Source of the DNA: an uncultured Verrucomicrobiota bacterium
GTDB taxonomy: Bacteria > Verrucomicrobiota > Kiritimatiellia > RFP12 > UBA1067
Direction: 5' to 3'
Length of the DNA stretch: 39,275 nucleotides
NCBI GenBank assembly: GCA_945613785.1
Contig: CALZAJ010000002.1
Coordinates: 1-39,275, forward strand
Shown: positions 5,869 to 39,275 of the stretch, in pieces
Layout of the letters: every line of letters starts with the position of its first letter
Position numbering within the stretch: the first letter of the stretch is position 1
Program-made: the position numbers and the translations under genes
Notes under the pieces: generated by a model
Told to the model about the DNA's origin: nothing
What the model saw: only the letters and a program-made list of their open reading frames with translations
Databases searched by the model: none

Positions 5869-5915
5869 CCGCGTGCAGAAAATCTTCAGAAGAGTCACAC
5901 CTAAGTCGCGAAATG

Positions 5916-5924
5916 TGATAAAAT
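5916..5924 (+). promoter_or_regulatory. Extended -10-like element TGATAAAAT upstream of tig
   Basis: TGnTAAAAT lies 38 nt upstream of the tig ATG. The leader carries a GAGGAG Shine-Dalgarno sequence. Confidence 0.4.
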
Positions 5925-5962
5925 ATATGCTCGCAATTTCAAAAACGAGGAGAATAGCCTAA

Positions 5963-7144: not shown

Positions 7145-7174
7145 GATTTGCGCCTCTGGGACGTTGATACAGGT

Positions 7175-7758: not shown

Positions 7759-7759
<1 letters not shown>
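7175..7759 (+). CDS. clpP: ATP-dependent Clp protease proteolytic subunit
   Basis: [29 protein letters not shown], the catalytic Ser context GQAASMGA, and MIHQP. The ATG at 7175 is preferred over the TTG at 7148. Confidence 0.95.
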
Positions 7760-8991
<1,232 letters not shown>

Positions 8992-8997
8992 GAAACC

Positions 8998-9324
8998 ATG
9001 CAGTTGACGCTTCTGAAATCGAAACTTCACCGAATCCGCGTGACCGAGGCGTGCCTCGACTACGAGGGTTCGCTTTCGCTTGATCCTGACGACATGGAAG
9101 CCGTCGGCATCCTTCCCTTCGAGAAGATCCTTTGCGCTGACGTTGAGAACGGCAACCGCTTCGAGACCTACGCGATCGAGGGCAAGCGCGGAAGCCACGT
9201 CTGTTGTCTCAACGGCGCGGCCGCCCATAAGGGCAAGGTCGGTGACCGTCTGATCGTCATGGCTTTCGCGCAGATGACGCCCGAAGAAGCCAAGGGCTTC
9301 GTTCCCGCGGTCAAGCACTTCTAA
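8998..9324 (+). CDS. panD: Aspartate 1-decarboxylase (pyruvoyl-dependent)
   Basis: MQLTLLKSKLHRIRVTEACLDYEGS: the Gly24-Ser25 self-cleavage site sits at the canonical position. Confidence 0.92.
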   Translation: MQLTLLKSKLHRIRVTEACLDYEGSLSLDPDDMEAVGILPFEKILCADVENGNRFETYAIEGKRGSHVCCLNGAAAHKGKVGDRLIVMAFAQMTPEEAKGFVPAVKHF

Positions 9325-9393
9325 TCGCCTTCCGGTCCTTCTTACTCGTTCGTGTAGGTACCCGAAGGAGTATTGGGTCAGCGAGATTTCATC

Positions 9394-9402
9394 TGTTAAT
9401 AT
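9394..9402 (+). promoter_or_regulatory. Extended -10-like element TGTTAATAT
   Basis: TGnTAATAT lies 31 nt upstream of the ATG at 9433. It overlaps the TTG at 9403 used by the ORF track. Confidence 0.35.
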
Positions 9403-9432
9403 TTGCGGCATTCTCGTACAAGGAATGTCGCT

Positions 9433-15802: not shown

Positions 15803-15824
15803 CCTCTTCCCGCGGCCCTCTCTT

Positions 15825-15833
15825 TGCTATAAT
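15825..15833 (+). promoter_or_regulatory. Extended -10 promoter element TGCTATAAT for the histidine kinase gene
   Basis: Matches the TGnTATAAT consensus. It ends 9 nt before the ATG at 15843 with no Shine-Dalgarno sequence, and lies 23 nt downstream of repeat copy 1. Confidence 0.45.
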
Positions 15834-15842
15834 ATCGCCATT

Positions 15843-17336: not shown

Positions 17337-17348
17337 CGGCTTCTCAAC

Positions 17349-17471
17349 CGCCTCTCCAGCCCTTGTCCTGGTCGTCCTGGTTGTCCTGGAGGTCCTGTAC
17401 AACGGCCGCTCAACGCGGCTTCGTTAAGAAGGCGTTGAAAGGCCCTCAAATCGCGGCTTCTCAAACGGCGC
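17349..17471. repeat. 123-bp repeat element, copy 2
   Basis: Identical to 15680-15802. It begins 13 nt after the kinase stop codon. Confidence 0.95.
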
Positions 17472-17502
17472 TCCAACGCAATTTCGTTGGATCGTCGTTC
17501 AA

Positions 17503-17537
17503 CAGGACCCCCAGGACCCCCAGGACCCCCAGGACAG
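17503..17537. repeat. Inverted iteron array, 4 x CAGGAC at exact 9-bp spacing (CAGGACCCC x3 + CAGGACA)
   Basis: CAGGAC starts at 17503, 17512, 17521 and 17530. It is the reverse complement of the GTCCTG iterons at 17365, 17374, 17383 and 17392. Confidence 0.85.
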
Positions 17538-17658
17538 CGGCCACAGGGCCGCCGCCGCGCCGAACCGCCTCACTGTCTTCCCCCAAATGGGGAGAAATCG
17601 ACAGCCAATCTTGCGCTTACCTTCCCCCGCATGGGTGAAATTTTTTTTCATTTCCCCC

Positions 17659-17687
17659 TTGCGGGGGACAACAAATTTTGGTATAGT
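17659..17687 (+). promoter_or_regulatory. Promoter: -35 TTGCGG, 17-nt spacer, extended -10 TGGTATAGT
   Basis: TTGCGG at 17659-17664 and TGGTATAGT at 17679-17687. The leader of roughly 30 nt carries a GAAGAGGAG Shine-Dalgarno sequence before the ATG at 17723. Confidence 0.45.
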
Positions 17688-17722
17688 TCGAATTGTCGAA
17701 GAAAGAAGAGGAGCAAAACACT

Positions 17723-20254: not shown

Positions 20255-20281
20255 GCCGGCTTGAGCTAAAACAGCCAACAG

Positions 20282-20316
20282 CAACCCGCGGTTCTGCCGC
20301 GGGTTGTTGTTTTTTA
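20282..20316 (+). terminator. Rho-independent terminator
   Basis: 10-bp stem CAACCCGCGG / CCGCGGGTTG with a 5-nt loop, followed by TTGTTTTTT. Confidence 0.8.
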
Positions 20317-20553
20317 AGAAAGACCCGGGACCAGCTTATCAATCCGCTAGAAAAAGCAGGGAGAAGCCGCATTTGCCTTTCAGTCAATGGGAAGATACTG
20401 AAAGCCGACTGCGGCTTCGGACTCGACCGCTCGAAAAGCTCAGATGCACTTTTGCTCAGATGCTCAGATGCCGAGGTCAGTCAAGACCGCGCAGCGGTGT
20501 TGACTGACCGAGTACAGTGGAATCTCGTTTTCGTTTTCTAATGCCAATAAATT

Positions 20554-20562
20554 TGATATACT
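20554..20562 (+). promoter_or_regulatory. Extended -10 element TGATATACT upstream of the DUF2442 gene
   Basis: TGnTATACT. The leader of roughly 60 nt carries GGAAGGGAGG before the ATG at 20631. Confidence 0.4.
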
Positions 20563-20630
20563 TTGCGCCAGAAAGGTCATAATGATGAGCCCGTTAATAT
20601 TCCGCCACCAAACTGGAAGGGAGGTGCGAA

Positions 20631-20924
20631 ATGAGCGAAGAATATATTCCTCAGATCTTTATGGCGGCTTTGTCTGGAGGGAAAAAGGTTGATTGCTATT
20701 TCACCAACGGAGCCGTCAAGCGCTTCGATGTCAGTATCGCCATCCGACTTGGCGGCGTCTTTGCACCGTTGAAGAATCAGGATGTGTTTGAGCGATCCAT
20801 GCTGGTTTATGACGGAGTTCTCGCTTTTGACTTAACAGGCCGACGTGAACCCTATGAGATGGTGGACATCTGTGCTGATATAATTTATGAGCAAGGCACC
20901 GATGTTGTGGTGTCGGCGGCCTGA
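20631..20924 (+). CDS. DUF2442-like small protein (97 aa)
   Basis: Strong Shine-Dalgarno sequence. The pattern GGVFAPLKNQDVFERS...YDGVLAFD...DICADIIYEQG resembles DUF2442 (..FePLkd.e.F..v.v....l.Wp.g.DiapE.LY). Confidence 0.55.
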   Translation: MSEEYIPQIFMAALSGGKKVDCYFTNGAVKRFDVSIAIRLGGVFAPLKNQDVFERSMLVYDGVLAFDLTGRREPYEMVDICADIIYEQGTDVVVSAA

Positions 20925-21049
20925 TAGCAGCGGGCAGCGGAGAGACAGCGGCTGGCCATGAGCCGACTTGGGGCTGCTCGTGAGGGCACGAGCAGTACGG
21001 TATCGCTTGAGGGCACCCCCGCGTGAGTCACGCCGGGTACTTTGCCCTC

Positions 21050-21205
21050 GTCCTGGTGTCTTGGCGTCCTGTCTAACCGCTCTCCAATGCAACTGCATTG
21101 GCGGGTGGTTGGTCGCTCCTTGTACAAGGGCTGTTCAACCGTCTGCCAACGCTGTCGACAACTCTGTTAGTAAGTCGTTGAAAAGAGGGTTGATAACACC
21201 TCGGC
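21050..21205. repeat. Diverged third copy of the repeat element (degenerate iterons, CTAACCGCTCTCCA, TGTACAAGGGCTGTTCAACCG, TGTTAGTAAGT-CGTTGAAAAGA)
   Basis: Manual alignment to copies 1 and 2. The order of blocks from AACCGC(C)TCTCCA onward is conserved, with many substitutions and two local palindromes (21084-21101 and 21118-21129). Confidence 0.5.
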
Positions 21206-21242
21206 AAACAGTCAATTGGTTGTTTACTCCATTGCCCTATTG

Positions 21243-21251
21243 TGGTATAAT
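21243..21251 (+). promoter_or_regulatory. Extended -10 promoter element TGGTATAAT for the giant-gene operon
   Basis: Matches the TGnTATAAT consensus, 48 nt upstream of the ATG at 21299 and 108 nt upstream of the ATG at 21359. Confidence 0.45.
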
Positions 21252-21298
21252 TCTCAATGTCTTACTGTCGCCTGTTCTGATCAAACGGGCACAAGGCA

Positions 21299-24200
21299 AT
21301 GAGACAAACTATAGTTGAAACACTCATCGATGAACGTGCAATAAGGCATTGTGTACGTATGAAACTGCGACACGCCGTCAAGAGGGCATTGTCGACTGTC
21401 TGTTTTATGACAGCCGGCGCTACTCTTTTTTCTTTGCCCTTTTTCAGTGCGCGCGGAGAGGAGTACGTCGTCATTGATGCTGCCGAGGCCGCGAAGATTG
21501 GCGCAGCCGCCGGCGGCGATGAGATCCGTCAGATTGATAATGGGGACAGCACACTCGACATAGTCCATCTCTTTACCTCGACGGGAACGTCGATGTCCTT
21601 TACTGTTCCGGCGGAGAATATGATCAAGCCGGGTACGTTCCGTCTGTTGATCGTCGGCGGCGGCGGCAGTGGCGGTGGCGACTGTGGCGGCGGTGGCGGC
21701 GCTGGTGGTCTGATCTACCTGGATAACCTTTCGGCCGCTTCCGCTGTTGTTAATGTCGGTGCTGGTGGAGCTGCGACGACCAGTAAGGAAATGGGCAAGG
21801 ACGGCAGCCCCACGACCATTCAGTTTGGCGGTACGACCTATACGGCCCTTGGTGGCGGCGGTGGTGCCTGGTGGTCGGGCACAAATGGCCGCAGTGGTGG
21901 TTCCGGTGGCGGTGCCGTGCAGGGGAACGGAAATGGTTCCGTAGGCGCTGCCCAGCAGCCGACATCAACGTCGGGTGGCTATGGTAATGCTGGTGCGACG
22001 AGCGCGGTTAACAACGCGGGCGGCGGTGGCGGCGGCGCAGGCGGCGCGGGTAATACTGATGGCTCGGGCGGCCCTGGCATGGCTTACGACATTTCCGGTG
22101 AAACCACGTACTATGCTGCAGGTGGCGGCGGTGGTTGCGATGGCACGCGCAGCACGAGCGTGGGCGGCAGCGGCGTGGGCGGTAACGGCTCTCATAACGG
22201 AAGCAAAGGCGCGACGGACGGTGTGGCCGGTACGGGCTCTGGTGGCGGCGGTGATGGCGGTGGCAACCTGGGACAGGGTTCCTATACCTCACGTTCTGGC
22301 GCGGGTGGTAGCGGTGTTGTGATTCTTCGTTACACTGTTGAGACTTCGCCGATTCGCTCGACGGGTGCCATCCGTAAGCAGGTAGGCGATGACACGGTGC
22401 TGATCTTTACGAATGTCAATGAGGCGTGCTCATTTACACTCGGCGGCACGGCGCAGGCTCGGATTCTCGCCGTTGGCGGCGGCGGTGCCGGTGGTAGTGG
22501 AACCTACGCAACGACTAAAGGTGCTGGTGGTGGTGGCGGCGCTGGCGGTATGATAGATACGAATGGTGTCGTTCTTGCGGCAGGCGTTTATTCAGTAGTC
22601 ATTGGTAAGGGTGGTGCTGCAGCTGCAGATGTTGAGGATCTGTACGAAGGCGCAGACGGTGATCCGTCGTACATTTCAATAAATGGAAATGACGTAATAC
22701 GCGCATATGGCGGTGGCGGCGGTGGCGCTGTGGGGGCTGGCCGTGATGGTGGTTGTGGCGGCGGTGGTTCGAAGGTTTCAGGAACTAAGGCAGGTGTTGG
22801 CGGTTCGGCCCTGCAATCGTCGTCCACGTTTGGCGGTTATGGTTTTAATGGCGGCTCTAGCTCGACGAGTCGTGTCGGTGCCGGTGGTGGCGGTGCGGGG
22901 GCTGTGGGTTCGGCTTCGTCGACAACCGGCGCCCAGGGAGGCAATGGCCGTATCAGTGACATTACCGGTGAGCAAGTGTACTATGCTGGCGGCGGCGGCG
23001 GTGGCATGTTTACAACTACTGTTTATGAAAGCCTTGGCGGTCTTGGCGGCGGTGGCAATGGCGGTAATAATGATGCTGCGGCTACGGCTGGTGTGGATGG
23101 TCTTGGTGGCGGCGGTGGAGGCTGCAACGCAGATACTGTGGGTGGTGCTGGCGGCAGCGGTATTATTGTCGTTCGTATTTCTTCTGTGCTTGACGGTCCT
23201 ATTGCAAAGCCGGCCTCTGCGAGCTTCGTTTTTGATGGTGAAGATCACACCTTGATTCCGCAGATGGATTTCGCCTACACGATTACCGGCACGGCCAGCG
23301 CGACGAATGTTGGCGACTATCACTTCAAGGTTGAATTGAAGGACGGTTTTTGTTGGAATGGCGACCCTGCCGATACCGATCCGGTGGAAATCAGCTGGTC
23401 GATAACCAAGGCGCCCAACGCGATTACCGATCTTTATCAACCCAATTGGCTCACGGGCGAAACCCCCTCTACGCCTACTTGTCATGTCGATTTCGGCACG
23501 CCGGTTTACACATATTCGACCGAGGAGAATGGCGAATATGTCGCGCTCGACCTTGCCAGTCTCGGCCGCGGCGAATATTGGGTAAAGGCTACCATCAAGG
23601 AAACGGCCAACTATGATGGCGCCGAAGCCAAGGCGTCGTTCCGCGTTGTCGCCGGCCCTTCCGAATCGTTCGTATACCGCACGTCTTTCGCCGTCGCTGG
23701 CACGGACGGAACTTCGACGCTGACGAATTTTCCAGTGCTCCTTCGGCTCGATAAGAGCAATGTAGGCTTTGATTATGCCGAAATCAGGCAAGCGCGCGAT
23801 GCTGGCGAATTGAGTTTTGCTGATAATACCGGGGCGTATTTGCCGTATGAAATCGACACGTGGAATGAAAACGGCGAATCGCTCATTTGGGTAAGGCTGA
23901 ACGAGCTGTCGCCGTTGGGCGCGACTATTTCGATGTATTGGGGTCTGCGCGATGGCTATTCTGTCGAGCCGAATAATCCGCAGGCCGTCTGGACCGATTT
24001 TGCCGGCGTTTGGCACATGAACGAGGTGATACTCGCGGGCCGCGCCAGTTCGACCAAGTCGTCCGATTCCACCGCCGGCAAACACGATGCCACCCCGGTA
24101 AAAGGCACGAACGGTAATTTGACGCAAATGGTTTCTACGAATGCGGTGGTCGGTCTCGGGCGCGTCAACAGTTCTGTCAAGAGTTGCTTGAATGGCAACC

Positions 24201-27200
24201 GCCTCGCTACCGGCTCGCCTTTCAATCTGGGTTCCAAGTTCACTTTCTCGGGCTGGTATCGCTTTTCTGGAGTTGATAGCGGAACCCACCCGCGGCTGGT
24301 GGGCAATAAGAAAGGAAATAAAGCTCCTGGTTGGAGTATCGAGGCGGCAGCCGGCAACGCCGAACTCTTGTATGTTCGAGCCAATCTTAGCGATCCGACT
24401 TCATACATCAATAAAAACGACAACCTTTATAACGATTGGGTTTACCTTTCTTTCGTTTTCGACGGCGACAAGTCTACGCTCTATTCGAACGGACGCTACG
24501 TGAATACGGTAACTATCAATCCGGTCGCCGATGCGGAAGAGGGGATGAACCTTTGCTTCGGCGCCAATGCCGATGGTACGGAATATTCGCTTAACGGTAG
24601 TTACGACGAGTTGCGTATCACCCGTGACGCGCTTTCAGCGGATTGGATAAAAACCGACTACGAGCAAATGGGCGGCGGCCGCGCGCCCACACACGGGCCG
24701 ATCTATGACGGCAGGGTTGCGCGTAACGGTTGGAAGGTCCTGCCGTCTCTCTCCAAGGCGAACTGGGACGAAGGAGAAGAGGCCGCGACCTATGAAGTTG
24801 GTGAGCCGCTCCTGGGTACGCCTTCGGTCAGCTTCCGCATCATGCCGACGGGCGTCGAAACCAATGAGATGCCGACGGTTCGTGGCAACTATCAGATTGT
24901 TTTCACCGTTCCCGCGGCGGAGGACGGCAGCTACGATGGAATGGAATACGCCATTGATTTCGCGATTGTTGACCATAGCCCTTATACGTCCGTCGGCGGT
25001 CTTAACGGTGATTCCGGTCGCGTCTTGCTCATGAATCGTGATCGAAATAGCAAGTGCCCCGTTGATCGGCAGGGATATTCGGATACGTCTACGAAGCAGT
25101 CGACCTTCTGGGAATACCTCAATGAGACTCCTTACTCTGGGATTGGTGATAATAATCTTCAGGATGGTACGGAGTTTATCCTGTGGACAAAGGGCTACGG
25201 AAGCAAACTCTGGTACCTTGCGAATTGCCGCCACGGTAATACATTCCCGCAGGACGATGACGCTCCGCTACTTGGATATCAAAACTACCTGAGTTGGTCC
25301 GAGGACTCATACTCGTATTATCGTCGTACGCTTCTTGCTTCACGTGAAGGTGTCGGTCATTGTGTTATGCAGAACACAACGGATGCAGCGGTGTATTCGT
25401 CGTGTTATGCAGATGGCATTGGCACTATCTATTTCGATGCTGTTAATGGATGGACAAATAATGTCGGTGGAACCTATTGCCTGGTTGTTGAAGTCGCGAC
25501 AAATGTAATTGGATCTGCACTTGCACCTGCAGATGAGAACATTTGGGAAGAACATCTAATATATGACGAGGGCACCGTTGATCCTGAAAGTGGTGAAGTG
25601 ACCCCGAATGTGATTGGCGCTTATACGAACTGGTACGAGAAGGCGGATTGGAAGCCTGTTCGTATGTTCTCTTTAAAGATGGATGGTACGGCTGCCTTTG
25701 AAAAGCTTCCTGCTACTGAGGAGCTTGATCTTGACATTGTCAATGGCGGAACAATCAGTAATTTCTTCCGCGTGTACGTGCCGCTGAACTACAGAATGCC
25801 AGCTCGTTTCCGCATTCGTCGCACGAGTATTGACCCCGCGAAGGCGGCGGATGGAAACGCCCTCATCCTCATCGACAACATCATCGCCTCTTATCCGACG
25901 ATGCGTGCTGATCTGAGCTCGTATGGTATCTTCGACGAGTCCAAGGGCGGTAAGCAGATCCTCGGTCAGGAAGCGGCCTGGGTGACGCCGTTCCCGTCCA
26001 TTGGCGATGATTCCGTCCTGGCGCGTGCGAAGCCGGAGTACTACGTGAACGGTGCGGATACGAATGCCGACACGAGCGCGTTCGTGACGGCGGCGAAAAT
26101 ACATTACCGCTGGCGTTATCTCGATCAGAAGTTCGGCGCGTGGAAGATGTCCAGCCTCGATCCCAAGAACGACTTCAAGGCGGTCAAGCCGCTTGAACTC
26201 CCGTCCATTCCGGGCGATATCGAATACTGGTACGAGACGAACCTCCAGACGCCGTTCTATCAGTACGTCGACTATTCGGGTACCAACCTCGGCGTTCCCG
26301 GCTATACGGAAGAGATCCTGATCGTCACCAACCGTGCGTCCGGCGTCAAGTTCGATAGCCAGGGCACCGATTGGTTCGTCCGTCTCCGCGAGGGTAAGAG
26401 CGACTATGAGGCGCTGAACCTCATCGTCCGTCGTTTCAATCCCGAAGGCACCGAGGTCGGTGTGACGAACGTGGTCGAGATGGAGCTCATCGGCAACCAC
26501 GTCTGGCGCGGTTATCTCCAGACGCTTTCGAGCTCGGTCGGTTCTCTCCTCTTCAAGGTCGAGGCCAAGAACCTCCAGGAACCCGGTTCGAAGGAGTGGA
26601 AGGAGAACGTCGCTTACTGGCGCAATTCCGAAGAGATCACGACGCTCCCGGTGAGCGGCACGCTGGTGGCCAGCTCTGAAGAAGAATGGACGCCGATGCC
26701 GTGCGATGCGACCACGGGCTACCTCCTTTTCCAGATCGATGACTCGACTCACTCGCTGACGATCGTCCATGCGGACTACCAGAACTTCAACGCGTGGAAC
26801 GACGCGAATGAGAACGGACTCTTCGTCGGCAGCTCGACGGAAGACGAGGGCAAGGCGGGTGCCTCCCCGAAGGCGATCGAGTGTTCCGAGTCCTTCAACG
26901 AGTGGGTTGACATGCCGGCGACGAACGAGCACTGGCAGGAAACCTTCACGACGACGGTCGCTCAGGAATATCCCGATTATACGACCTTCCCGTCCACCAC
27001 CACCCCGAACGGATGGAACGCGGGCCAGGGTCAGCTCGTCTACGGTCTCTATAAGGACAAGGACAGCGGCCGTGCGCTTCAGATGGCGGGTCAGGGCTTC
27101 GGTTATCTACAGTTTGTTGACGCGGCGGAAGCTCCGCGTGGCCTCGAGTCGATCAGCTTCACGGCGCGTCTGGCTCAGTCCATCAACTTCAGCGACTTCG

Positions 27201-30200
27201 CCTATTACGACGCCGAGTCGAAACTGGGTTTGCACGACTATACGTTCAACGCGCGTACGGCGTTCGACCTGAACGGCTGCAATGACTTCACGGGTAATGC
27301 GTCTCTCTCGCTGATCGCCTATTATCGTCCGGGTAAGGGCTGCTACGAGTTCCGTTATGAACAGCAGTACGCAGCCAAGAGCACGGGCGAATCGCTGACG
27401 GGCAAGATCGGCGGACCGAAGAAGCAGGGTCAGGTTCTTTCGCTCTATCGTTGGTCGTACGACAAAGCCACGGGTCGTCTCAATACGACGCTTCTCGGGT
27501 CGTTGACGAACACGACGGGTACGGCGAATGCATTCGATCATCCTAGGTGCGAGGGCACGTCCTACAACTACCAGCCGATGTACATCTCCGTCTCCAATAG
27601 TGCGGATGGTGTGACTTGCATCATGGCGGGTGTCTGCCGCACGGGCATCAAGGCGACGGATACGCTCTCGACGATGGCGGCCAAGGAGTTCTATAACGTC
27701 TGCTACCGTGACAAGAGCGCGCAGCGTCTGACGAGCGGCACCTACGGCGTGTTGTCCGCGAACTGCAACGGCCAGTTCATCAAGCCGTACAAGTTCTCCA
27801 AGCCGATTGCGTTCCTCTCGAACTTCACGGACGACAACAAGCCGTTCAACTCTTACACGAAGAACACGATTCCGTTCTATACGACGGATAAGACGGACTG
27901 CACGGTCGAACTCAATAATGACCTGTGGGTCATCCCGCCGGGTCGCATGGAGTCGTTCAACGAGTCCGTCTCCCAGTGCGGTGTCCGTGCGCTCAAACCG
28001 ACCCAGGAGCTGAACATCTACACCGGTACGGCCGGCAAGACGGACTGGACGCTTCTGGCGAAGACCTCGTTCGACAGCTTCGGTACGTCCAAGCCCGTCA
28101 ACTTCAACCTGTACACGACGAAGGACTGCTCGGTCAAGATCGCCGCGGCCGGTTCGCTTGCCGATCTCCGTACGGACCTCATCATCGACGACGTCGTCCT
28201 GAAGCAGTGGCGTGGCGACGACTACAAGAACAAGGACAAGATGGTGAAGTACATCCCGCACTGGCAGGAGCCGTCGGACATCAAGGGGCACACCAACTTC
28301 ACGTTCACGTCGTGCTGGATCAAGAACGAGAGCATCCTCATGTCGGCCAAGCGCACGATTCCGGGTACGCCTTGCGCGATCCAGTCGCCGCTCTTCGACG
28401 GCAACTACAACCGCGGTCTCGGTCTCGGCATGTTCTCCTTCAACTACGAGAACGCGCAGGAGAACGTCAACCTGATCCTCCAGATTGCGACGAACGTGGC
28501 CTATGACGTTGTCAATAACATCGACAATCTCGACACCAACACCTGGGTGTACGTCACGAACTTCACCTTCACCGCGGCCGACAAGGCCAAGGGCGTCCGC
28601 AGCGCTTACGTCGGTCACCATGGCGTCAAGGGCGTGATGCGTCTTGTGATGGATCCGATTGTCGTCGACAACGTCAGGAACACGACGGACACCGCGAAGT
28701 TCGGTGAGATTTACATTACCGACGTCTTCTGCCGCGACGAACCCGTCCTCGACAGCGGCAGCTGGTGGGGCTGGAACCTTCGTACGCTCGGTGTCGACAA
28801 CAGCGGCAAGGACTCGGAGCATCGCATGTACCTGCCCGACTTGACGACGGTTGCGTCGAAGCTCGGCCTTTCGCTCGCGCTCAACAACTCCGTGAAGGAC
28901 GGCGTGGATGACCGTGACAACCAGACCTACCTCCAGCACGTCCCGTTCCTCCAGACCCCGACGTTCACGTCGAACATCGTGGGCGAGGTGACGTTCCGTG
29001 CGCGTAAGTACAATCCGTCCGACAAGCAGCCCGCGTATCTCGCGCTCTTCGGTTCGAAGACTGGTGACGAGAACGGCAAGTGGGACCGTCTCGAGATTCC
29101 GGACAATGACCTTGGCGTCTTCATCATCTCCAACGACACCTTCTCGACCTACTCCTACAAGACCGAGCCGGGTCAGGCCTACAACGCCTTCCGCCTCGCG
29201 GTCACGGGTGTGGAGGACGTGACGGATCCGCATATGTCGAACGCTCTCCCGAAGGGCTACGACCAGCCCTACCGCGTCCTCATCGACGAAGTCCTCGTCT
29301 CTGAGGCCGTCCGTGCGCGTGTCGCGTTCCGTCACGTCGGCGCGTTCCGCCACGATCTGATGGGCACTGGTTTCGTACCGGATGTCCCGAGCGAGAAGGA
29401 GCAGCCGATGTGCAACGAGAGCTGGGGCGTCGAGTGCGAAGTCTACGCCGCCCAGCTGCCGGACGAAATCGACTTCTCGCGCAATCCGCGCGTCCGCCTC
29501 TGGTGGTATGCGGGCGAGTATCCGTGGGGCTTCGAGAGCTGGAAGACGAACAAGCTCGCGAAGAGCGCGTGGCTTGCCCGTGCGACGGGCACGAACCTCG
29601 TCTACCGCTCGAGCTATCAGACGGCGCAGGACGCGGTCATTCCGATGTCCACCGCCCCAGGCACGGTCGTCCAGTACATGCTCGAGGTCGAGTACTATCA
29701 GGTCGGCGCGTCCACTCCGCTGACGAACTATCTCTCGTCGGCTGACTGGTCAACGCCGTCGTGGTACAAGCCGGTTGATCTCAACCGTGACCACGGCTAT
29801 TCCGACTTCTCCGCCTATAACATCCTTGATACGGTCGCCCCGCACTGGGCCTGGATCAACGAGGTGAACATCTTCGGCGACTACGACCGCAACTACGACA
29901 ACGTCGACAAGAACAAGCAGTTCGTGGAAATCGCGGTTCCGGCGGAAGCCGACATCACCGGTTGGAAGGTCACCTTGCTCGAGCCGCAGAAGGGAACCGA
30001 TTCGGTCATCACGAACGTCCTCGGCGTGTTCGGCGCGAAGGAACTCGAGCCGAAGAAGCCGGGTCTGCGCAACATGGCCTCCAACATGGTCTTCCGCGTT
30101 CTCGCGTGCGAAAGCGCGCGTTCGTCCAAGACGCTCAGCTACGATGACGGCACGCTGGACGGCGTCTGGTCCGCGGATTATCCGACGACGGTCTTCACGG

Positions 30201-31603: not shown

Positions 31604-32042
31604 GAAGACAGTGATTCTGGTGCTGGTGGTCCTGGCCGTCTTGCTCGGCCTGGTCTGCCTGCTTTGCACCAAGGTGCTGCGCGGCGAGAAAGAGCCGACG
31701 CAGGTGAAGTACGATGATCCCGTGCAGGCTCGCATGCACGACGAGACGTACGTGGCGAAGCTGAACGAGCAGCTCGCGTCGCGCAAAGAGATCCTCAAGG
31801 GTCTTTCGGCGGCGAAGACGAAGCTGAACGCAGCGAAGGCGAAGCTCGAGGAGGCGAAGAACGCCAAGGCCTCGGACGAGGAGATCGCCAAGTTGAGCGC
31901 CGAAGTCGCTGCGTGCAACGAAGACGTCCAGGCTTGGGCCAAGAATTTCGAAAACAATCAGCGCCTTTCCGAGAAGATCGTTCGCGATCAGATGTGGAAG
32001 TCGGGTGCGGATCAGCAGCAGCTTCAGCAGAAGGGGAACTAA
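31590..32042 (+). CDS. Small membrane-anchored coiled-coil protein (150 aa)
   Basis: N-terminal anchor KKTVILVLVVLAVLLGLVCLLC, followed by a Lys/Ala/Glu-rich heptad-like segment (LSAAKTKLNAAKAKLEEAKNAKASDEEIAKL). It overlaps the giant gene by 14 nt and ends 1 nt before the next ATG. Confidence 0.75.
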   Translation: MTSNKKTVILVLVVLAVLLGLVCLLCTKVLRGEKEPTQVKYDDPVQARMHDETYVAKLNEQLASRKEILKGLSAAKTKLNAAKAKLEEAKNAKASDEEIAKLSAEVAACNEDVQAWAKNFENNQRLSEKIVRDQMWKSGADQQQLQQKGN

Positions 32043-32043
32043 G

Positions 32044-35000
32044 ATGACCATCAAGAACAAACTCCTGAAACTATTCACCCTCGCCGCGGGAATCACCGCA
32101 GGCAGCGCGGCGTGTGCCGCCGGAGGTGACATATTCGAGATTCGGCCCTGTACCCAGGAAGGTCTGGCCAGAGCTGCGTATGCGACCATCGACTCCCCGC
32201 TGACTTCAGGCGAATCGGTCTACTTCAAGATCCGCCTCATCCAGCGCACGATCGGCGCCGCGAATTCCGTGTGGAAAATCGAGCATATCGGTGCCAGTTC
32301 CCAGGTGGTCGATGACGCGCTTTATCCGTTGCAGGTCGGCATCTACGTGTCAGGCCAGCTCCGTTACGCCTCGTTGATCGATGCGACGTCCGATGCCACG
32401 ACGGGCTTTACGGATCTCGTCTTCGAGTACAAGACGCGTGCGGGCGACTTCGCGCTCCCGATCGTTCTCGCGACGACTGACGGTCCCGCTTCGGATTCGG
32501 ATACCTCGCTCGAGTATCTGCTCAACCCGGCGCGTACCGACAAATGGAGGATCGCGAACGACGCCGGCAACACCTGCAAGTTCTATTACTGGACGCCTGA
32601 CCGCCCGGCCTCTTCCCCTGATGGCACGCGCATGACGGACTACTCGCTTGCGGACTGCGGCTTCTATGTGCAGACCATCGGCTTCGACAAGGAGTGGGAG
32701 TCCGAGGACTTCTGGCGCACAGTTCACCAGAACTCGTCCATCACAGTCGGCGGTACCCCGTCCCTTGAGGCTGCCGCGGCCCCTGAAGACGCGGTCACGC
32801 TCTATGTCTGGTCGATGGATGACAACGTGGTCAAGGTCCGTGGCGGCACGGTCCAGAACATGATCACCGGTTACGATGAGAGCAACAATCCCATCCGCAC
32901 GTCCACGCAGGTCGGTACGGTCACCCTCGCGGGTGGCCAGCTGAAGGCCGACTTCGCAATTGAGGGCGTGACGGAAGGCGACAGCACGAAGCTCGTCCTC
33001 AGCCCGTGGGATCACTACACCTTCAAGACGGCGACGGGTGCCCGTATCGTCGACTACATCACCGTTCCCGTCAAGTGTATCGAGCCGATGCCCCCGACGG
33101 CCATTGTCGAGGCCGACCGCCTCGTTGCCTATGCTGACGGCAACTACATGACCTATGGTGCGCTCCTTTCTGTCTATCTCTCCCAGGCCTATCAAGATGG
33201 CCCCGTCGATGTCAAGATCAAGCCCTCCTTCGCGGATGGTGCGGCGGCTGACTGGGGTGATTACATCCGCTTCTCCACGACGCAGGACGAGGTGACGGCG
33301 CTGCCGCCCGGCGGTCCCGGCAACGAGATCACGGTCCGTATCCCGGCCGGCTCCACGGCCAAGCAGCAGATCTACGTCTTCTGTCTCCGCGGCGATTCGC
33401 ACACCACGGGTACGTCCCGCATGGTGTTCACGCCTGAGGTCCTTGACGCAACGGCGGCGGCGGTCATCCACGAGGTGACGGCGGCCGGTATGGAAATCCG
33501 TGCGGCGGCTCCGGTCATCACGACGCCGGCCGAGGGCGCGAAGATCTCCGGCATCTGCGGTGACGAGATGCCCTTCATCGTCGCGGTGAGCGACACGTTC
33601 GCCGATTCCTCCTTCCAGGACACGACGGGCGCTTCCGGTTATAAGATCTACATCAAGTACCGCGGTTCCGACGCCTACACGCTGCTCGACGGCTTCTATT
33701 ACGTCGGCGAGGGCAATGCGCTTTACCGCATGAAGGATGACGGCACGCAGACGGGCACGTACTTCGCCTCCACCGATCTTCCGATCATCAAGTACCCGGG
33801 TTCCGGCGAAGGTCTCGCCAGCGAGGTCTACGTCGTTTCCCCGCTGAGCGGCAAGAAGAGCGAGGTCGTCCACTTCGTCGCTGACATCAAGGAGGCCCGC
33901 ACCTCCAACGTCGTCACGACCGACGACAAGAACGACATCTACTACGAAGGCGAGAAGGCGACCTTCCAGATCTCCATCTCCGAGAAGAACGACACGGGCA
34001 GCACGATCTACGCGTTCTTGCTCGCCAGCGACAACGCCGAGGCGGCCATGTTCAGCGCCACGCCGAACTTCGTGGTCTGCAACGACACCGATCTGACGAA
34101 GACGTCCGGTCTCGCGATCAACAACTACCAGGACAAGACGTCCGCCAGCAAGATCATGTTCCTCGACGGACTCAGCGAGGACGCGGGCGGTCTCAGCCTC
34201 ACCTTCCAGGTCGTGCTCTGCAGCACCAAGAACTACGATCCGGCCAAGCGTCTCGCGGGCTATGATTCGAACTACCTGAACATTACGGTCTACAACCTCG
34301 AGCCGCAGATCACGCGTATTGAGATGAACGGCTTCGAGTCCGAGAGCGATGGCGCTGTGTTCCCGAACAAGGTCCCGAAGGGCATGACCCAGGAGTTCAA
34401 GGCAATCGTTTCCGATAAGGGCAAGTACGACCTGACCAACACTGCCGAACCGTTCCAGTGCAAGTGGACGGCGACGCTCGCGGGTGTCGGCGCGATCAAA
34501 AACGACGTGATCGCCGGCGATCCTTCCAAGAATCCGTTCTCCTATGACTTCCCGCGTGCGGGTGACTGGACGATCAAGCTCCAGGTCAAGGATAAGGACA
34601 TGGAGGACTGGTCCGACGTCACCTACTCGGTCGGCGTCACCGTGCTCGATAACCCGCAGGTCGAAGTGATCGCTCCTGAGGCGCTCGTCGAGAACGACCA
34701 CTCGGGCAAGATCCAGGTCCAGCTCAGCTACTGGGATCCGCTCTTCACGGGCAAGCTCAAGGTCCGTGTCACGGTCGAGGAGTACAGCCCGGGCCGTGCG
34801 AACCCTGGTGAACTCAAGCTGGACAGCAACTACTCGACCGGCGTCAACACGTATGAGGTCGAGATCGGCGATGCGCTTCCTGTCGATCTCATGATCGAGG
34901 CGATGGATGGTACGGAAGTCTCCTCGCTCTACGGCTTCGTCATCAAGACCGAGGTCATCTCGACCGACGTCCTGCCGACGTCCCACACGCCGGCGAACGA

Positions 35001-38000
35001 GTACTATGTTGAAGATTCTGCGCGTGTCCTCATCAACAACGTCGAGCCCGTCTGCATGGTCAGCCCGGCGGAGAACACGAACCGCTATGAAGTCGCGGGC
35101 GGCGTGGCGAAGAACCACGGCATCCGTTGGCAGGTCAAGAGCGACGTCGACGCCGATTTCGCGGGCATTCCGACGTTCAAGGGCATCAAGGTCAGCTTCT
35201 CGGGCTGCGCGAACGCGACCGAGTTCTTCGTGAACGAGTCCACGAGCGACACGTTCTATCCTGACTTCGGCTCCTCGCAGGGTGACCAGGACGTCGTCCT
35301 CACGATCGAGGATAAGGATGGCGGCTACCTGACCTGGACCTGGCAGTTCACGGTCACGCCTTCGAAGTTCCTCACGACGGTCTCCACCGGTCCGTCCGGC
35401 GGCACGACGACTTCCGCGCTCTCCCAGAAGTACACGCTCTGCGATGGTATCGGCATGGGCCACACCTATGTCGCCGACGCGATCTTCTCCTCCGCGCAGA
35501 ACTTCCGCCTGAAGTGGAACTGCTCGAAGAACATCTACATGGACATCTACGGCTTCGGCTACAAGGTGGCCAGTCCGAACGACGACGGCACCCTCGATGG
35601 CATGGACATCGCCCTCGACCAGTACGGTTCGGCTTCTGCCGGCAGCACGGTCACGGATCCGTTCCACTACCCGATGGCCGACTTCAACCCGGACGACAAG
35701 GAAGAGGCCAAGAAGATCAAGGACTCTTACTTCTACTGCTGGATTCTCCACAGCGTCGGCGAGAGCGGCAATGGTGTCACGAGCTCGATTCTCGGCAACT
35801 CGATCGCCCCGGAACGTCCGGGCGTGGTCGGCACCGGTTCGGTGATGCTCCCGACGGAGAAGACCGAGGACGGCAGCTATCTCGACACGGTCGTCGAGGC
35901 CATCTTCGCGCAGGAATGGCTCCCCGCCGATAACCTCGGCGATATCAACCAGGACGGCGTCCCCGACGTCTTTGTCGTCAAGGATTGGAAGGGCGGCAAA
36001 CTCATCAACCTCGTCTACGGCACGGAAGACACCGAGTCCGACCTCAAGGCTTTGAATGCCAGCAACCCCGACGACGACTACTTGCCGGGCGTCTTTGAGC
36101 AGGATGATATGGTCGCGCTCGTCGAGAATAGCAAGAACAGCTACGCGCCCGTAGGCGTGCCGTTCAATACGCGCCTCGAGCTGCGCGGTCTCGACGACGG
36201 CCTGAACGCGACCGATCTTACCGCATCCGACGTCAGCTTCAGCGAGGATGAGCAGAAGGCCTGGGAGGCCTTCGCGAATGCGAACGGCCTCGATGCCGAT
36301 ACGCCGGATCTCGCGATCTGGAGCCCGGAACCGCGCAGCGCGCGCTACTCGCGCATGGACCCGACCCTCGACGATACCGACGGCGACCGCTTCCCCGACG
36401 GCTGGGAATACTACTTCTGGTATCAGGCGCATGTTTGGGCGCCCGCCGGCAAGAGCAAGCCGCGCCAAGGCCAGCAGTTCGCCTTCGAGCGTTTCCGTGT
36501 GTTCAATATTCTCGTGGGCGAGGAAATTCCGGCCGCGGAAGTTGAAAAGCGCTTCAACCCCTGCGATCCGCTGCCAGCTAAGGATTATGCCGACCATCCC
36601 GATTTCGACAACGACGGCCTTTCCGATCTTGAAGAATTGGTGCTTGGCACGAACCCCTGCCATTGGGATACCGACGGCGATCATATGTGCGACGGCTGGG
36701 AGGTCATGTACGCGCTCGACCCGCTCAACGGCAGCAAGAACGGCAACCCCGACGGCGATTTCATGGCCTTCTTCAATACCCTCGGCGTGCCTTGCTATGT
36801 CGACCCGAACGCGCCGATTCAGGATTCCGAAACGCCTGGCTTCGAGTTCCTCATCTGCAACCGCTTGCGTCCGATCATCGACTACGATCAGCTGTCCGGG
36901 ACGATTGTTCGCGATTTGACGACGATTGCGGTGCACTGCAAAGCGAAGGCCGATCCCGAAGACCCCGGAAAGGTTCTGCGCTACGGCCTGGGGCCGGATG
37001 TGGACGGTCCGCCCGCCAATGCCGAGCCCGAGGTGCTCAAGGATTGGGTGTGGAGCAATTTCATGGTCGAGGATATCTACAGGGTGGAGATCAAGCTTGT
37101 CGCGGGCGACAGGGTGAATATGTTCTTGCCCTACACCCTCATCCACGATCAGGTCCACACTGCTTTTGGCTACGATCCGCGCACCGCATGGTACAAGAAC
37201 GGCGAAGGCTATGTGGCCAGCCGCTGGGATCCGATGATAAATAAAGAGCTCATGCCCTTCGATACTACGGGTGTGGCGATCAATACTCGTCCCTACGAGA
37301 CGTACGACGAATACCTCGTCATGAAGTACCGCAGCGATTACAATATCATCTATTACCTCAAGGAACCCGGCTTCGACAACGGCAAACCTTGGGGCACGCT
37401 GCTGGCGAAAACGACGAACCCGAACGTAGTCTTCCCGACGGTTGAGGTAGAGGTGACCGAAACAACCGAGGAAGTCAGCGCCGACGGAACAACCACTAAT
37501 ACCATCGAGAACACGACCGTGCAGACCGTCGTCCAAACGAACGAGACGACGATTATCGCCCAGCGGCTCGCCGAGGCGCTTGCCGCTTCCGGCAGCTCCA
37601 GCACCGTTCAGACTGGACACGGCGCGGATACCGACGGCGACGGCGTGCCCGACGGCTGGGAACTCTACACCTACCGTTGCCCGAACGCTGCGCCGACCGT
37701 CGACGACGAAAAGCACCCGAAGAAGGAGATCGACTTTGACTACGACGCCGACAAGCTCAACTACGCCGACGAATTCGCCGGCACCGATTCCTGCAACGCC
37801 TACCGCAATTGCGCAACCATCTACGCCAACCACCCCGGCAATCTCAAAGGATGGTTCAACAAGTTCTTCCCCACCAACCCCGGTACATGGCTCGGATCGG
37901 CAATTGGCAACGACGACGGCAAAGATACCGACGGTGACGGTTTGACCGACTACGATGAGGGTCAGGCCTGGTGCGCCAATTTCTTCTATGAAGGGAAGAT

Positions 38001-39275
38001 GGTACTCGAAGCGCAAAGCAGCATCTTCTCGGCCGGCGCGAAAGCAATGGGCTTTATCTACGGCGAACCGCAGGATTCGATCACCTGCTGCGTGCGCGGC
38101 GGCGGCCTCAACCCGTGCACGGTCGATACCGACCAGGACTGGCTGCCAGACGCCTGGGAAGCGGCCCACGCCGGTTTGCCGGTGGATTTGGCGACGCGCC
38201 AAACCGTGGCGCCCGTTAACGGCGACAAGCTCGCCGACTTCGAGTTTGGCGACTCGACCTGGATTGCCGATGGTATCTATGGCGTTGAGGGTCTCACGGG
38301 CGTCTATATCGCCGGCGGCATGGACGGTACTTGGTCCGGCGATTACTGCACCGGCGATAGTATTTCGGTCGATGAATTGCTCGGGAAGGTCACGCGCGAT
38401 GTCGACTTTGACCACGACGGGCTTCAAAACTACCAGGAATACTTCGTGCAAGGCATGCGCCACTTCCGCTGGGACGAGATTTCCACCCCGCTTATGGGTC
38501 GCATCCTCGAAGAGGGCGATCGCGTGATGGGCAACCTCGTAACGGTGCATGAACAGCAGTTTGCCAACTTCACCCAGCACGATTTTTCCGACCCCGGTCA
38601 GCTGGCGGTCAACAGCGCGCTTGCGTGGGGCTCGAAGGAACTCGTGAAAACCATCACGGTCACGAACGGAACTTCCGTCACCTACGATTATATCGATCCG
38701 CTCAATCCCGCCGCGGGTCTGGTGACGAACATAACCTATTACACCGAGCGCAAGCGCATCTACGTGGGCGGCAATCAGCTGATCGACGATCGCATCGCCG
38801 GCAAGATCGCCAAAGCCTATTCGGCGCCGTGGTCGGACGCAGGCTTCCGCGCGCTCGGTTACATGTCCGCGCCCGCGCATGAATGGGATCGCTCCTTTAC
38901 GGCGTTACTTCTCAGCAATCCCACCTACCTCTTCCCGATTACCGGATCGCTGCTTGTCGACAAGGCGATGATAGGCTATGTTTCCACCGATCCGCGCATG
39001 CCCGATACCGATATGGACGGCATGGACGATTATTACGAGCTCTTCCACGGCCTCAACCCGTTGCTCGGCCAGACGACACCCGGCTACTGCGATTTGCTTT
39101 ACGATAAATACGGCGACATCATCGCGGGTACCTACTATGCCATAGGCTTCCCGCTGGTCGATTCGCGTCCGGTGTTTAACGCCTTCTTCAATGAATGGAC
39201 GCATCCGAACTTCGATCGCCGCTTGCCGTTGGGGTCTGGCGCGATCGGAACCATCGGTGCTCTCGCGCACGACTG
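32044..39275 (+). CDS. Second giant secreted protein (more than 2410 aa, 3' end outside the window): Ig/PKD-like modules plus thrombospondin-type-3-like Ca-binding repeats. Not present in the supplied ORF track.
   Basis: Hand translation of the frame (positions equal to 1 mod 3) from the ATG at 32044 met no stop in any stretch checked, including 38881-39275. Signal peptide MTIKNKLLKLFTLAAGITAGSAACAAG. PKD-like modules end in WTIKLQVKDKD and VVLTIEDKDGG. Seven or more D-x-D-x-DG..D(G)WE motifs are present, with a strong G/C bias at third codon positions. Confidence 0.88.
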   Translation, partial: MTIKNKLLKLFTLAAGITAGSAACAAGGDIFEIRPCTQEGLARAAYATIDSPLTSGESVYFKIRLIQRTIGAANSVWKIEHIGASSQVVDDALYPLQVGIYVSGQLRYASLIDATSDATTGFTDLVFEYKTRAGDFALPIVLATTDGPASDSDTSLEYLLNPARTDKWRIANDAGNTCKFYYWTPDRPASSPDGTRMTDYSLADCGFYVQTIGFDKEWESEDFWRTVHQNSSITVGGTPSLEAAAAPEDAVTLYVWSMDDNVVKVRGGTVQNMITGYDESNNPIRTSTQVGTVTLAGGQLKADFAIEGVTEGDSTKLVLSPWDHYTFKTATGARIVDYITVPVKCIEPMPPTAIVEADRLVAYADGNYMTYGALLSVYLSQAYQDGPVDVKIKPSFADGAAADWGDYIRFSTTQDEVTALPPGGPGNEITVRIPAGSTAKQQIYVFCLRGDSHTTGTSRMVFTPEVLDATAAAVIHEVTAAGMEIRAAAPVITTPAEGAKISGICGDEMPFIVAVSDTFADSSFQDTTGASGYKIYIKYRGSDAYTLLDGFYYVGEGNALYRMKDDGTQTGTYFASTDLPIIKYPGSGEGLASEVYVVSPLSGKKSEVVHFVADIKEARTSNVVTTDDKNDIYYEGEKATFQISISEKNDTGSTIYAFLLASDNAEAAMFSATPNFVVCNDTDLTKTSGLAINNYQDKTSASKIMFLDGLSEDAGGLSLTFQVVLCSTKNYDPAKRLAGYDSNYLNITVYNLEPQITRIEMNGFESESDGAVFPNKVPKGMTQEFKAIVSDKGKYDLTNTAEPFQCKWTATLAGVGAIKNDVIAGDPSKNPFSYDFPRAGDWTIKLQVKDKDMEDWSDVTYSVGVTVLDNPQVEVIAPEALVENDHSGKIQVQLSYWDPLFTGKLKVRVTVEEYSPGRANPGELKLDSNYSTGVNTYEVEIGDALPVDLMIEAMDGTEVSSLYGFVIKTEVISTDVLPTSHTPANEYYVEDSARVLINNVEPVCMVSPAENTNRYEVAGGVAKNHGIRWQVKSDVDADFAGIPTFKGIKVSFSGCANATEFFVNESTSDTFYPDFGSSQGDQDVVLTIEDKDGGYLTWTWQFTVTPSKFLTTVSTGPSGGTTTSALSQKYTLCDGIGMGHTYVADAIFSSAQNFRLKWNCSKNIYMDIYGFGYKVASPNDDGTLDGMDIALDQYGSASAGSTVTDPFHYPMADFNPDDKEEAKKIKDSYFYCWILHSVGESGNGVTSSILGNSIAPERPGVVGTGSVMLPTEKTEDGSYLDTVVEAIFAQEWLPADNLGDINQDGVPDVFVVKDWKGGKLINLVYGTEDTESDLKALNASNPDDDYLPGVFEQDDMVALVENSKNSYAPVGVPFNTRLELRGLDDGLNATDLTASDVSFSEDEQKAWEAFANANGLDADTPDLAIWSPEPRSARYSRMDPTLDDTDGDRFPDGWEYYFWYQAHVWAPAGKSKPRQGQQFAFERFRVFNILVGEEIPAAEVEKRFNPCDPLPAKDYADHPDFDNDGLSDLEELVLGTNPCHWDTDGDHMCDGWEVMYALDPLNGSKNGNPDGDFMAFFNTLGVPCYVDPNAPIQDSETPGFEFLICNRLRPIIDYDQLSGTIVRDLTTIAVHCKAKADPEDPGKVLRYGLGPDVDGPPANAEPEVLKDWVWSNFMVEDIYRVEIKLVAGDRVNMFLPYTLIHDQVHTAFGYDPRTAWYKNGEGYVASRWDPMINKELMPFDTTGVAINTRPYETYDEYLVMKYRSDYNIIYYLKEPGFDNGKPWGTLLAKTTNPNVVFPTVEVEVTETTEEVSADGTTTNTIENTTVQTVVQTNETTIIAQRLAEALAASGSSSTVQTGHGADTDGDGVPDGWELYTYRCPNAAPTVDDEKHPKKEIDFDYDADKLNYADEFAGTDSCNAYRNCATIYANHPGNLKGWFNKFFPTNPGTWLGSAIGNDDGKDTDGDGLTDYDEGQAWCANFFYEGKMVLEAQSSIFSAGAKAMGFIYGEPQDSITCCVRGGGLNPCTVDTDQDWLPDAWEAAHAGLPVDLATRQTVAPVNGDKLADFEFGDSTWIADGIYGVEGLTGVYIAGGMDGTWSGDYCTGDSISVDELLGKVTRDVDFDHDGLQNYQEYFVQGMRHFRWDEISTPLMGRILEEGDRVMGNLVTVHEQQFANFTQHDFSDPGQLAVNSALAWGSKELVKTITVTNGTSVTYDYIDPLNPAAGLVTNITYYTERKRIYVGGNQLIDDRIAGKIAKAYSAPWSDAGFRALGYMSAPAHEWDRSFTALLLSNPTYLFPITGSLLVDKAMIGYVSTDPRMPDTDMDGMDDYYELFHGLNPLLGQTTPGYCDLLYDKYGDIIAGTYYAIGFPLVDSRPVFNAFFNEWTHPNFDRRLPLGSGAIGTIGALAHD

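Follow-up and report, generated by a model that had tools for sequence, protein, structure and literature searches.

A predicted operon for two giant exported proteins and a small membrane tether in gut and rumen Kiritimatiellae

The 3' part of the stretch of DNA analysed here (39,275 nucleotides (nt) of contig CALZAJ010000002.1, from the assembly GCA_945613785.1 of an uncultured bacterium of the Kiritimatiellia; hereafter, the window) raises the question of whether three tightly packed open reading frames (ORFs), two of them giant, form a single system and, if so, what this system could build. All three are on the plus strand: a giant protein with features of export, G1 (21299-31603), a small protein of 150 amino acids (aa), S (31590-32042), and a second giant of the same kind, G2, of which the window holds the 5' 7.2 kb (32044-39275, aa 1-2410 of ~6146). 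We give about an even chance to the reading that the products of this operon assemble outside the cytoplasm into a membrane-tethered complex of giant proteins, peculiar to the Kiritimatiellae of gut and rumen. Most likely, this would be a fibre or adhesin that is held at the membrane, stiffened by calcium and combined with an exchangeable partner; we infer both its function and its location.

Gene coupling and the conserved pair

In its longest form the G1 ORF encodes 3434 aa. The probable true start is the ATG at 21359 (M21, giving 3414 aa), because a 93%-identical homologue (P0047) begins there and a canonical signal peptide results. The small gene opens with an ATG at 31590, so that its first 14 nt are also the last of G1 (TAA at 31601-31603), and its own TAA (32040-32042) is followed, after a gap of 1 nt, by the ATG of G2 at 32044, just before which stands a Shine-Dalgarno-like AAGGGG. 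From this ATG to the window end, the six-frame ORF list gives 2410 codons without a stop. The three ORFs, the 14-nt overlap and the 1-nt gap described in the initial annotation of this DNA are borne out by the ORF list and by direct reading of the junctions. The same annotation saw neither terminator nor promoter at the junctions. This stands for terminators, as a scan of 20000-39275 found no terminator-like hairpin at the G1/small or small/G2 junction. With regard to promoters, a weak 9/12 promoter-like match lies at 31557-31585, just 5' of the small gene; the match is probably a product of chance, since the site counts in the region do not exceed those of shuffles. With junctions of -14 and +1 nt and no terminator-like site at either, the layout establishes, at the level of sequence, that the three genes are one translationally coupled operon. 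The promoter-like site proposed in front of G1 turned out to be the top sigma-70-like match (10/12) in 20000-39275, a TG-extended candidate of the form TTTACT-17 nt-TATAAT at 21223-21251 on the plus strand. A minus-strand ORF of 2176 aa (32350-38880), antisense to G2, was considered as a gene and rejected as a shadow ORF, because its GC content by codon position (0.82/0.43/0.57) mirrors that of G2 (0.57/0.43/0.81).

The full length of G2 was called as 6144 aa on a Logan contig, which was found by exact look-up of the small protein and is 98.96% identical over 13.4 kb, and as 6146 aa on the NCBI assembly GCA_964322395.1, whose G1 is 99% identical to that of the window. Both sources are ~99% identical, and the value of 6144-6146 aa rests on gene calls in these two assemblies, the Logan contig (26.6 kb) having been read as far as G2 aa 3333, with no stop. 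A relative with 47% G1 identity has a G2 of 6144 aa as well. Since the full length of G2 is ~6,146 aa, the three genes together would occupy ~29 kb.

A pattern scan of one genome per species gave 230 candidate stretches with G2 relatives, and the best 80 were taken for analysis; the species of the window is outside this species-representative set, the closest match there being 54% identical. The start of G2 is included in 67 of the 80 loci and missing from the remaining 13, and in 61 of these 67 a homologue of the small protein is encoded immediately 5' of G2. Searches with a hidden Markov model (HMM) of the small-protein family found exactly one plus-strand ORF directly 5' of G2 in 69 of 88 sources. 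The distance from the small gene to G2 is -4 nt in 20 loci and 1-3 nt in 13, with a maximum of 40 nt, and where G1 is present it mostly runs 4-17 nt into the small gene. Conversely, when three small-protein homologues were looked up, all three adjoined a G2, of 4089-7413 aa. This coupling is kept between species whose proteins are only 25-60% identical, in agreement with the earlier view of the genes as one tightly coupled unit. G2 has 44 database homologues, mostly of 3,950-4,210 aa, and the named relatives are metagenome-assembled genomes of Kiritimatiellae from rumen, yak, sheep, goat, horse, chicken and human gut.

What lies upstream of the pair is variable. Among the 61 loci, the upstream gene encodes G1 in 26, a Peptidase_C10 (streptopain-family) protein in 21 and a 2661-aa repeat protein in four, while ten have another gene or none. 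Judged by gene order, the conserved unit is the small protein together with G2, not the three-gene set. The three-gene arrangement that had been put forward as the unit is therefore not upheld, and the expected synteny of the 150-aa protein with giant neighbours holds for G2 and, in the case of G1, for those 26 loci only. The Peptidase_C10 partner, of ~1125 aa, comes from a gene that directly precedes the small gene and often shares 4 nt with it; examples are found at 5305-8691 in locus L088 and at 1-1869 in loci L092 and L093, and in L093 an extra 2661-aa repeat protein is encoded between the Peptidase_C10 gene and the small gene. One lineage has the gene upstream of the small gene on the opposite strand. 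There is no homology between the upstream partner types, and the partners of other lineages were rejected as distant homologues of G1 (hhalign probability <=1%).

A simpler explanation would be that large adhesin-like ORFs happen to be packed side by side and are functionally unrelated. Genomes of the Planctomycetes-Verrucomicrobia-Chlamydiae (PVC) group commonly contain giant genes of this adhesin-like kind, and G1 and G2 show no sequence similarity to each other (BLASTP gives none that is significant, and their origin as paralogues was discarded). However, the conserved start/stop overlaps, the persistence of the small protein-G2 pair among relatives with only 23-60% identity and the agreement of the reciprocal look-ups leave chance adjacency with next to no probability, and for the small protein and G2 it is already contradicted.

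Anatomy of the three proteins

The small protein is composed of an N-terminal transmembrane signal-anchor (aa ~7-27) and a helix-loop-helix domain (aa ~43-150). In at least 50 of 69 homologues a lipobox replaces the transmembrane helix; the copy in the window has no lipobox and belongs to the about a dozen lineages in which the small protein bears an alpha-helical signal-anchor. Because most homologues carry a lipoprotein signal, the helical part is probably an extracytoplasmic ectodomain. The single-pass anchor described initially is thus retained, and of the two options then offered, ectodomain or endodomain, the former is favoured. The conserved motifs of the family are R-M-x-D-P-x-Y-x-x-x-L and V-R-x-R-I. 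A protein database search with the alignment of small proteins gave 107 clusters of 111-173 aa, none of them named. The members have no common Pfam family, and their profile matches only designed helical hairpins or coiled coils and prefoldin beta, weakly. Being short, membrane-tethered (mostly by lipidation) and helical, with a coiled coil, the protein resembles Lpp, Skp and prefoldin, but it shows no homology to Lpp or Skp and forms a two-helix hairpin of ~100 aa with conserved motifs of its own. The C-terminal Lys on which an Lpp-like linkage to peptidoglycan would depend is the last residue in only about half of 25 aligned members, and such a linkage is not clearly indicated.

G2 starts with a Sec-type signal peptide (MTIKNKLLKLFTLAAGITAGSAACA, 32044-32118), which was read from the sequence and modelled as a low-confidence N-terminal helix, and directly after it comes a conserved motif, GD-I-x-E-I-R-P-C. 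The N-terminal part (aa ~28-1175, 32125-35568) is predicted by AlphaFold2 and Foldseek to be an array of about ten immunoglobulin (Ig)-like or fibronectin type III (FN3)-like beta-sandwich domains. The model of aa 1-1200 has a predicted local distance difference test score (pLDDT) of 82 and matches tandem Ig-like arrays with E values down to 5e-19, including central-pair proteins, a mastigoneme protein, the MG domains of alpha-2-macroglobulin, contactin, the base of GhpA and an S-layer protein. Further on, a segment with TSP3-type calcium-binding motifs (36601-39066; TSP3_bac, Pfam E 1.6e-11) carries D-x-D-x-D-G-x-x-D-x-x-E at aa 1520, 1862, 1961, 2121 and 2321; as a regular expression this motif is found nine times in the first 3333 aa of G2, and its aspartates are invariant in the alignment of the G2 family. 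Beyond the window end are a LamG domain (aa ~2600-2800) and, in the C-terminal 110 aa, a family-specific domain conserved among G2 proteins only, in short and long forms alike. Among relatives, the length of G2 varies from 3,900 to 7,400 aa by gain of Ig-like and TSP3 modules. The extra 2000 aa of the long forms were considered as a secretion or enzyme domain, and hold only further modules of these same two kinds. A PKD-like module, listed in the initial annotation, was dropped from G2, as its Pfam match (E 0.07) is not significant. A C-terminal sorting domain common to G2 (...FFKVxVEK) and the Peptidase_C10 partners (...FYKVTVEE) was rejected too, because the HMM of the G2 C-terminus misses the latter.

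The Sec-type signal peptide of G1 (MKLRHAVKRALSTVCFMTAGATLFSLPFFSA, 21359-21451) was likewise read from the sequence, in agreement with the N-terminus of the homologue, so that the signal peptides claimed for both giants were recovered. Two Gly_rich_2 domains (aa 94-345 and 385-627, 21578-23179; Pfam PF21722, E 9e-18 each), whose family profile weakly matches the tail-fibre protein of cyanophage Pam3 in the PDB (E 0.024), precede a module made up of DUF2341 (aa 835-897) and Laminin_G_3 (aa 973-1118; 23801-24652 for both). Laminin_G_3 is detected with a Pfam E of 1.5e-16, and DUF2341 scores 21-23 bits, just under the Pfam cut-off of 23.4, and is called in homologues. This DUF2341-LamG module is the only part of G1 common to many other large Kiritimatiellae proteins. 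The remaining ~2300 aa (aa ~1150-3434, 24746-31600) have no Pfam match at E<=0.5 except noise and are densely conserved throughout the G1 family. Conservation and modelling suggest that this family-specific region is built from beta-sandwich or jelly-roll modules: aa 2300-3434 were modelled by AlphaFold2 (pLDDT 73) as almost entirely beta-structured, with Foldseek matches to the Eph ligand-binding domain, CBM22, F5/8-C/neuropilin, MAM and BcsB. A lamin-tail-like domain, which had also been proposed, was rejected for G1 (aa ~2830-3010), as none of 13 family members matches such a Pfam model and no PDB sequence match was found. G1 has 22 full-length homologues, with 27-99% identity. As single sequences, neither G1 nor G2 matches solved structures; the family profiles of the giants give only LamG-type matches (pappalysin, pentraxin), besides the weak one to the Pam3 fibre. 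From the module list of the initial annotation there remain, therefore, the two Gly_rich_2 domains, Laminin_G_3, TSP3_bac and, just below its threshold, DUF2341, and the beta-sandwich content attributed to the giants, Ig-like domains included, agrees with the structure models.

Searches of G1 and of the inspected parts of G2 yielded no catalytic, RTX, autotransporter, two-partner secretion or PilY1 domain and no known anchor. This bears on the idea of G2 as a platform, comparable to a cellulosome or a weapon, for an active cargo encoded upstream, in many lineages the protease and in this one the lectin-like G1, which would be employed in degrading host or dietary polymers or in attacking other cells. 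In favour of such an enzyme display, a Peptidase_C10 protein is encoded directly 5' of the small gene, often overlapping it, in 21 of 61 loci, and giant proteins of the PVC group have been read as surface weapons or cellulosome-like structures (bioRxiv 10.1101/2023.11.21.568195; PMC12057145). Nevertheless, the giants contain nothing recognisably catalytic in the parts just mentioned, no cohesin-dockerin-type pairing module was recognised, and the C-terminal domain of G2 is not one that the Peptidase_C10 proteins share. Enzyme display is, in our view, improbable.

Fibre, scaffold or secretion substrate

In the preferred reading, of a membrane-tethered fibre or adhesin, G1 and G2 would be exported by Sec, and the helical hairpin of the small protein would hold or organise G2 at the membrane, as a tether and possibly as a holdase. 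G2 would act as a calcium-stiffened fibre or stalk, and the protein encoded upstream would be an exchangeable accessory, displayed on this fibre or working with it. The accessory would be the lectin-like giant G1 in this genome, and the C10 cysteine protease or other large proteins in other lineages. The likely role of the assembly would be attachment to glycans, plant fibre, mucus or other cells present in the gut. Its extracytoplasmic location is suggested by the signal peptides on G1 and G2 and by the frequency of the lipobox among the small proteins.

Among known systems, the module would come closest to a fibrillar adhesin that is anchored in an unrecognised way, its surface exposure and ligand binding being only predicted. 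The features in common are a signal peptide, tandem Ig-like domains (about ten in the G2 model), lectin-type modules of the LamG or jelly-roll kind, calcium-binding repeats and a large size variation through repeat gain, as in G2. In contrast to fibrillar adhesins, no known anchor was found in G1 and G2, be it LPXTG, an autotransporter barrel, the retention module of RTX proteins and type I secretion systems (T1SS) or the C-terminal domain of type IX secretion systems (T9SS). Furthermore, G2 is paired with a dedicated small lipoprotein or anchor, and most of the sequence falls outside described families. The small tethered protein is a candidate substitute for the missing surface anchor.

Several points weigh against a tethered surface fibre. 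Within the operon, neither an outer-membrane anchor nor a sorting signal nor a gene dedicated to secretion was recognised, and the giants may remain periplasmic. In neither giant was a domain with an established ligand detected, the LamG, jelly-roll and Ig-like folds being generic. A stretch of about 1000 aa in G1 (aa 1150-2300), like most of G2 past aa 1200, has no family match and could hide an enzymatic domain. That the small protein touches either giant, as a tether or as a chaperone, is something we infer from gene order alone. Finally, the promoter candidate at 21223-21251 falls in a strain-variable segment (19425-21485) and is not conserved, because that segment is replaced in a 99%-identical sister strain.

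The first of these points would suit an envelope scaffold, in which the giants stay inside the cell and, with the tethered small protein, form a structural layer or spacer, comparable to a giant Lpp-like or periplasm-spanning system; the small protein would then be tethered to the inner membrane or by its lipid. Neither giant shows a detectable signal for translocation across the outer membrane or anchoring in it, and the signal-anchor present in about a dozen lineages, that of the window among them, puts the small protein in the inner membrane. Conservation across the clade, amid the core genes ackA, pta and kpsF, is also what a housekeeping trait would show. On the other hand, the variable length of G2 and the swapped partner typify surface proteins under diversifying selection rather than a scaffold of fixed size, and the glycine-rich domains similar to those of phage tail fibres, together with the lectin-like modules, suggest binding of external ligands. 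A scaffold is the main alternative to the fibre, though we consider it unlikely.

The genes found downstream of G2 in relatives introduce a further explanation. They are ackA (in 64 of 80 loci), pta and an SIS/CBS (kpsF-like) gene, after which come Amuc_1102, a PilM/FtsA-like gene, an Amuc_1100-like gene, a TSP3-containing gene and a secretin gene, all on the same strand, the secretin cluster beginning ~3.3 kb past the G2 stop. With respect to the secretion or anchoring genes that the initial annotation thought possible downstream of the window, it is G2 itself that first continues, to ~6,146 aa, and the secretin cluster of the relatives, of the Amuc_1098 type, is a candidate export route and the only candidate for passage through the outer membrane that was seen. 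G1 and G2 might accordingly be cargo or tip adhesin of a type IV pilus-like or type II secretion-like machinery working through this secretin, with G1 in the role of a PilY1/MshQ-type DUF2341 adhesin. An association of large DUF2341 proteins with type IV pilus loci and with PilY-type tip adhesins has been described (PMC4858521), and the cluster of Akkermansia, which is plentiful in the envelope, has been proposed to form pili-like structures (PMC5332112). The likeness of G1 to PilY1/MshQ-type proteins, however, is confined to its DUF2341-LamG module (aa 835-1118) and to the PilM/secretin cluster nearby in relatives. Three unrelated genes of metabolism and lipopolysaccharide synthesis (ackA-pta-kpsF) separate that cluster from G2, and neither the operon nor its inspected flanks contain pilin, prepilin peptidase or secretion ATPase genes. 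In addition, G1 and G2 bear Sec signal peptides instead of prepilin signals, no PilY1/PilC domain match was obtained, the PilY1 C-terminal domain included, and G1, the sole carrier of DUF2341, is absent from over half of the loci and thus dispensable for the conserved unit. The linkage itself was examined within one clade, where general synteny explains it equally well. A pilus or secretion substrate of this kind is rather unlikely.

A bolder version joins the secretin to the preferred fibre: the small tether and G2 would be the core of an unrecognised PVC display or export system, in which the hairpin protein, anchored by lipid or helix, would dock a calcium-stiffened giant fibre that crosses the outer membrane through the Amuc_1098-type secretin and presents an exchangeable, co-translated cargo, which would be a giant lectin, a C10 protease or a repeat adhesin. 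We regard this as a long shot; if true, it would provide the enigmatic Akkermansia-type pili-like cluster with a substrate.

The remaining systems to which the tethered fibre could be compared are more distant. Giant RTX adhesins of the LapA, SiiE or MpIBP type are also multi-thousand-residue, calcium-dependent proteins with Ig-like repeats, encoded in a compact operon, but they have no N-terminal Sec signal, carry C-terminal RTX repeats and are encoded beside genes for an ATP-binding cassette (ABC) transporter, a membrane-fusion protein and TolC. Neither G1, G2 nor the complete long G2 homologues match RTX/HemolysinCabind, and both giants have Sec-type signals. No T1SS genes (ABC transporter, membrane-fusion protein or TolC-like) were seen near the operon in 13 loci, where the neighbours are housekeeping genes, ackA-pta-kpsF and the secretin cluster. 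As for type V secretion, no Autotransporter, Haemagg_act or ShlB/POTRA match was obtained in G1, G2 or the long G2 homologues. The giant proteins of Omnitrophota and other PVC bacteria and the GhpA grappling hooks of Aureispira are similarly very large, exported and repeat-rich, come from uncultured or little-studied lineages and, in the case of the GhpA base, appear among the Foldseek matches of the Ig-like array of G2. Yet no sequence relationship to G1 or G2 was detected, and the literature treats these giants as tools for predation or for breaking down cell walls, with catalytic or transmembrane parts, none of which were found in G1 or G2. GhpA needs type IX secretion, of which the surroundings of G1 and G2 show no trace. 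The Myxococcus TSP3 proteins CglD and MtsD were rejected as relatives (18.6 and 14.3 bits against NCBIfam equivalog cut-offs of 800 and 400), the TSP3 motif alone being common. By these profile comparisons, the module is outside the RTX/T1SS, type V, PilY1/MshQ and CglD/MtsD families. Full-text literature searches gave no description of the small protein-G2 module, in line with the initial impression that no system of this kind had been described.

Genomic surroundings and significance for the clade

Upstream of the operon, the window contains ordinary chromosomal genes (rpe, a flavoprotein gene, a GT2 gene, gmk, tig-clpP-clpX, panD, two CNNM/CorC genes, a HisKA_3 kinase gene and two large ORFs of unknown nature). 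Rfam and tRNA scans of the window gave no regulatory RNA and no tRNA. Just 3' of an 853-aa ORF (17693-20254), a GC-rich hairpin, CCCGCGG-TTCTG-CCGCGGG, followed by TTGTTGTTTTTT, is located at 20283-20316 on the plus strand; judged by eye, and absent from the list produced by the scan, it looks like an intrinsic terminator that would insulate the giant operon from upstream transcription. Between this hairpin and the G1 promoter region lies an ORF of 97 aa (20631-20924, plus strand), which has no Pfam match and is absent from the sister strain.

Comparison with this sister strain, GCA_964322395.1 (window 15804-21485 against 5993-10106 of locus L006), shows 98.7-98.8% identity on both sides of a divergent stretch. 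The HisKA_3 kinase gene (15843-17336) is missing from the sister strain, identity is only 88% over 17346-19425, and over 19425-21485, where the window has the 97-aa ORF, the promoter-like site and the signal peptide of G1, its sequence is a different one. The GC content of the window falls to 0.53-0.55 across ~17-27 kb. A further ORF, of 1415 aa (9403-13650, plus strand), has no Pfam family; its sister-strain counterpart was called as 2135 aa, with a faint F5_F8_type_C match, and nucleotide homology between the two begins only at window position 10713, so that it looks like a second strain-variable gene for a large protein.

On the other side of the operon, in relatives, the acetate kinase gene starts 14-40 nt past the G2 stop (22540-22555 in L002, 22390-22427 in L003 and 21691-21710 in L010) and is followed by pta. 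These main ATP-yielding genes of fermentation could be transcribed by read-through from the giant operon or from a promoter inside the 3' end of G2. Between the secretin gene and the Amuc_1100-like one lies a gene (29326-30408 in L003, 29199-30362 in L002) that carries TSP3-type motifs and cross-matches the TSP3 segments of G2 in tblastn, which reflects a common calcium-binding motif and is not evidence of homology.

As it stands, the operon represents a well-documented new adhesin-like module rather than a new principle. Two large protein families and one small one have been defined, mostly without a Pfam model, and the gene order provides a rule for annotation, namely a small tether directly 5' of G2 and, beyond it, a variable partner. 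If the link to the secretin held, the module would also have a bearing on what the Amuc_1098-1102 proteins do in Akkermansia. The Kiritimatiellae of gut and rumen are widespread, uncultured and almost unstudied, and the operon takes up ~29 kb of a small genome; since its core pair is kept in a large share of the clade, it is probably central, by way of attachment to plant fibre, mucus or partner cells, to the contact of these cells with their surroundings.

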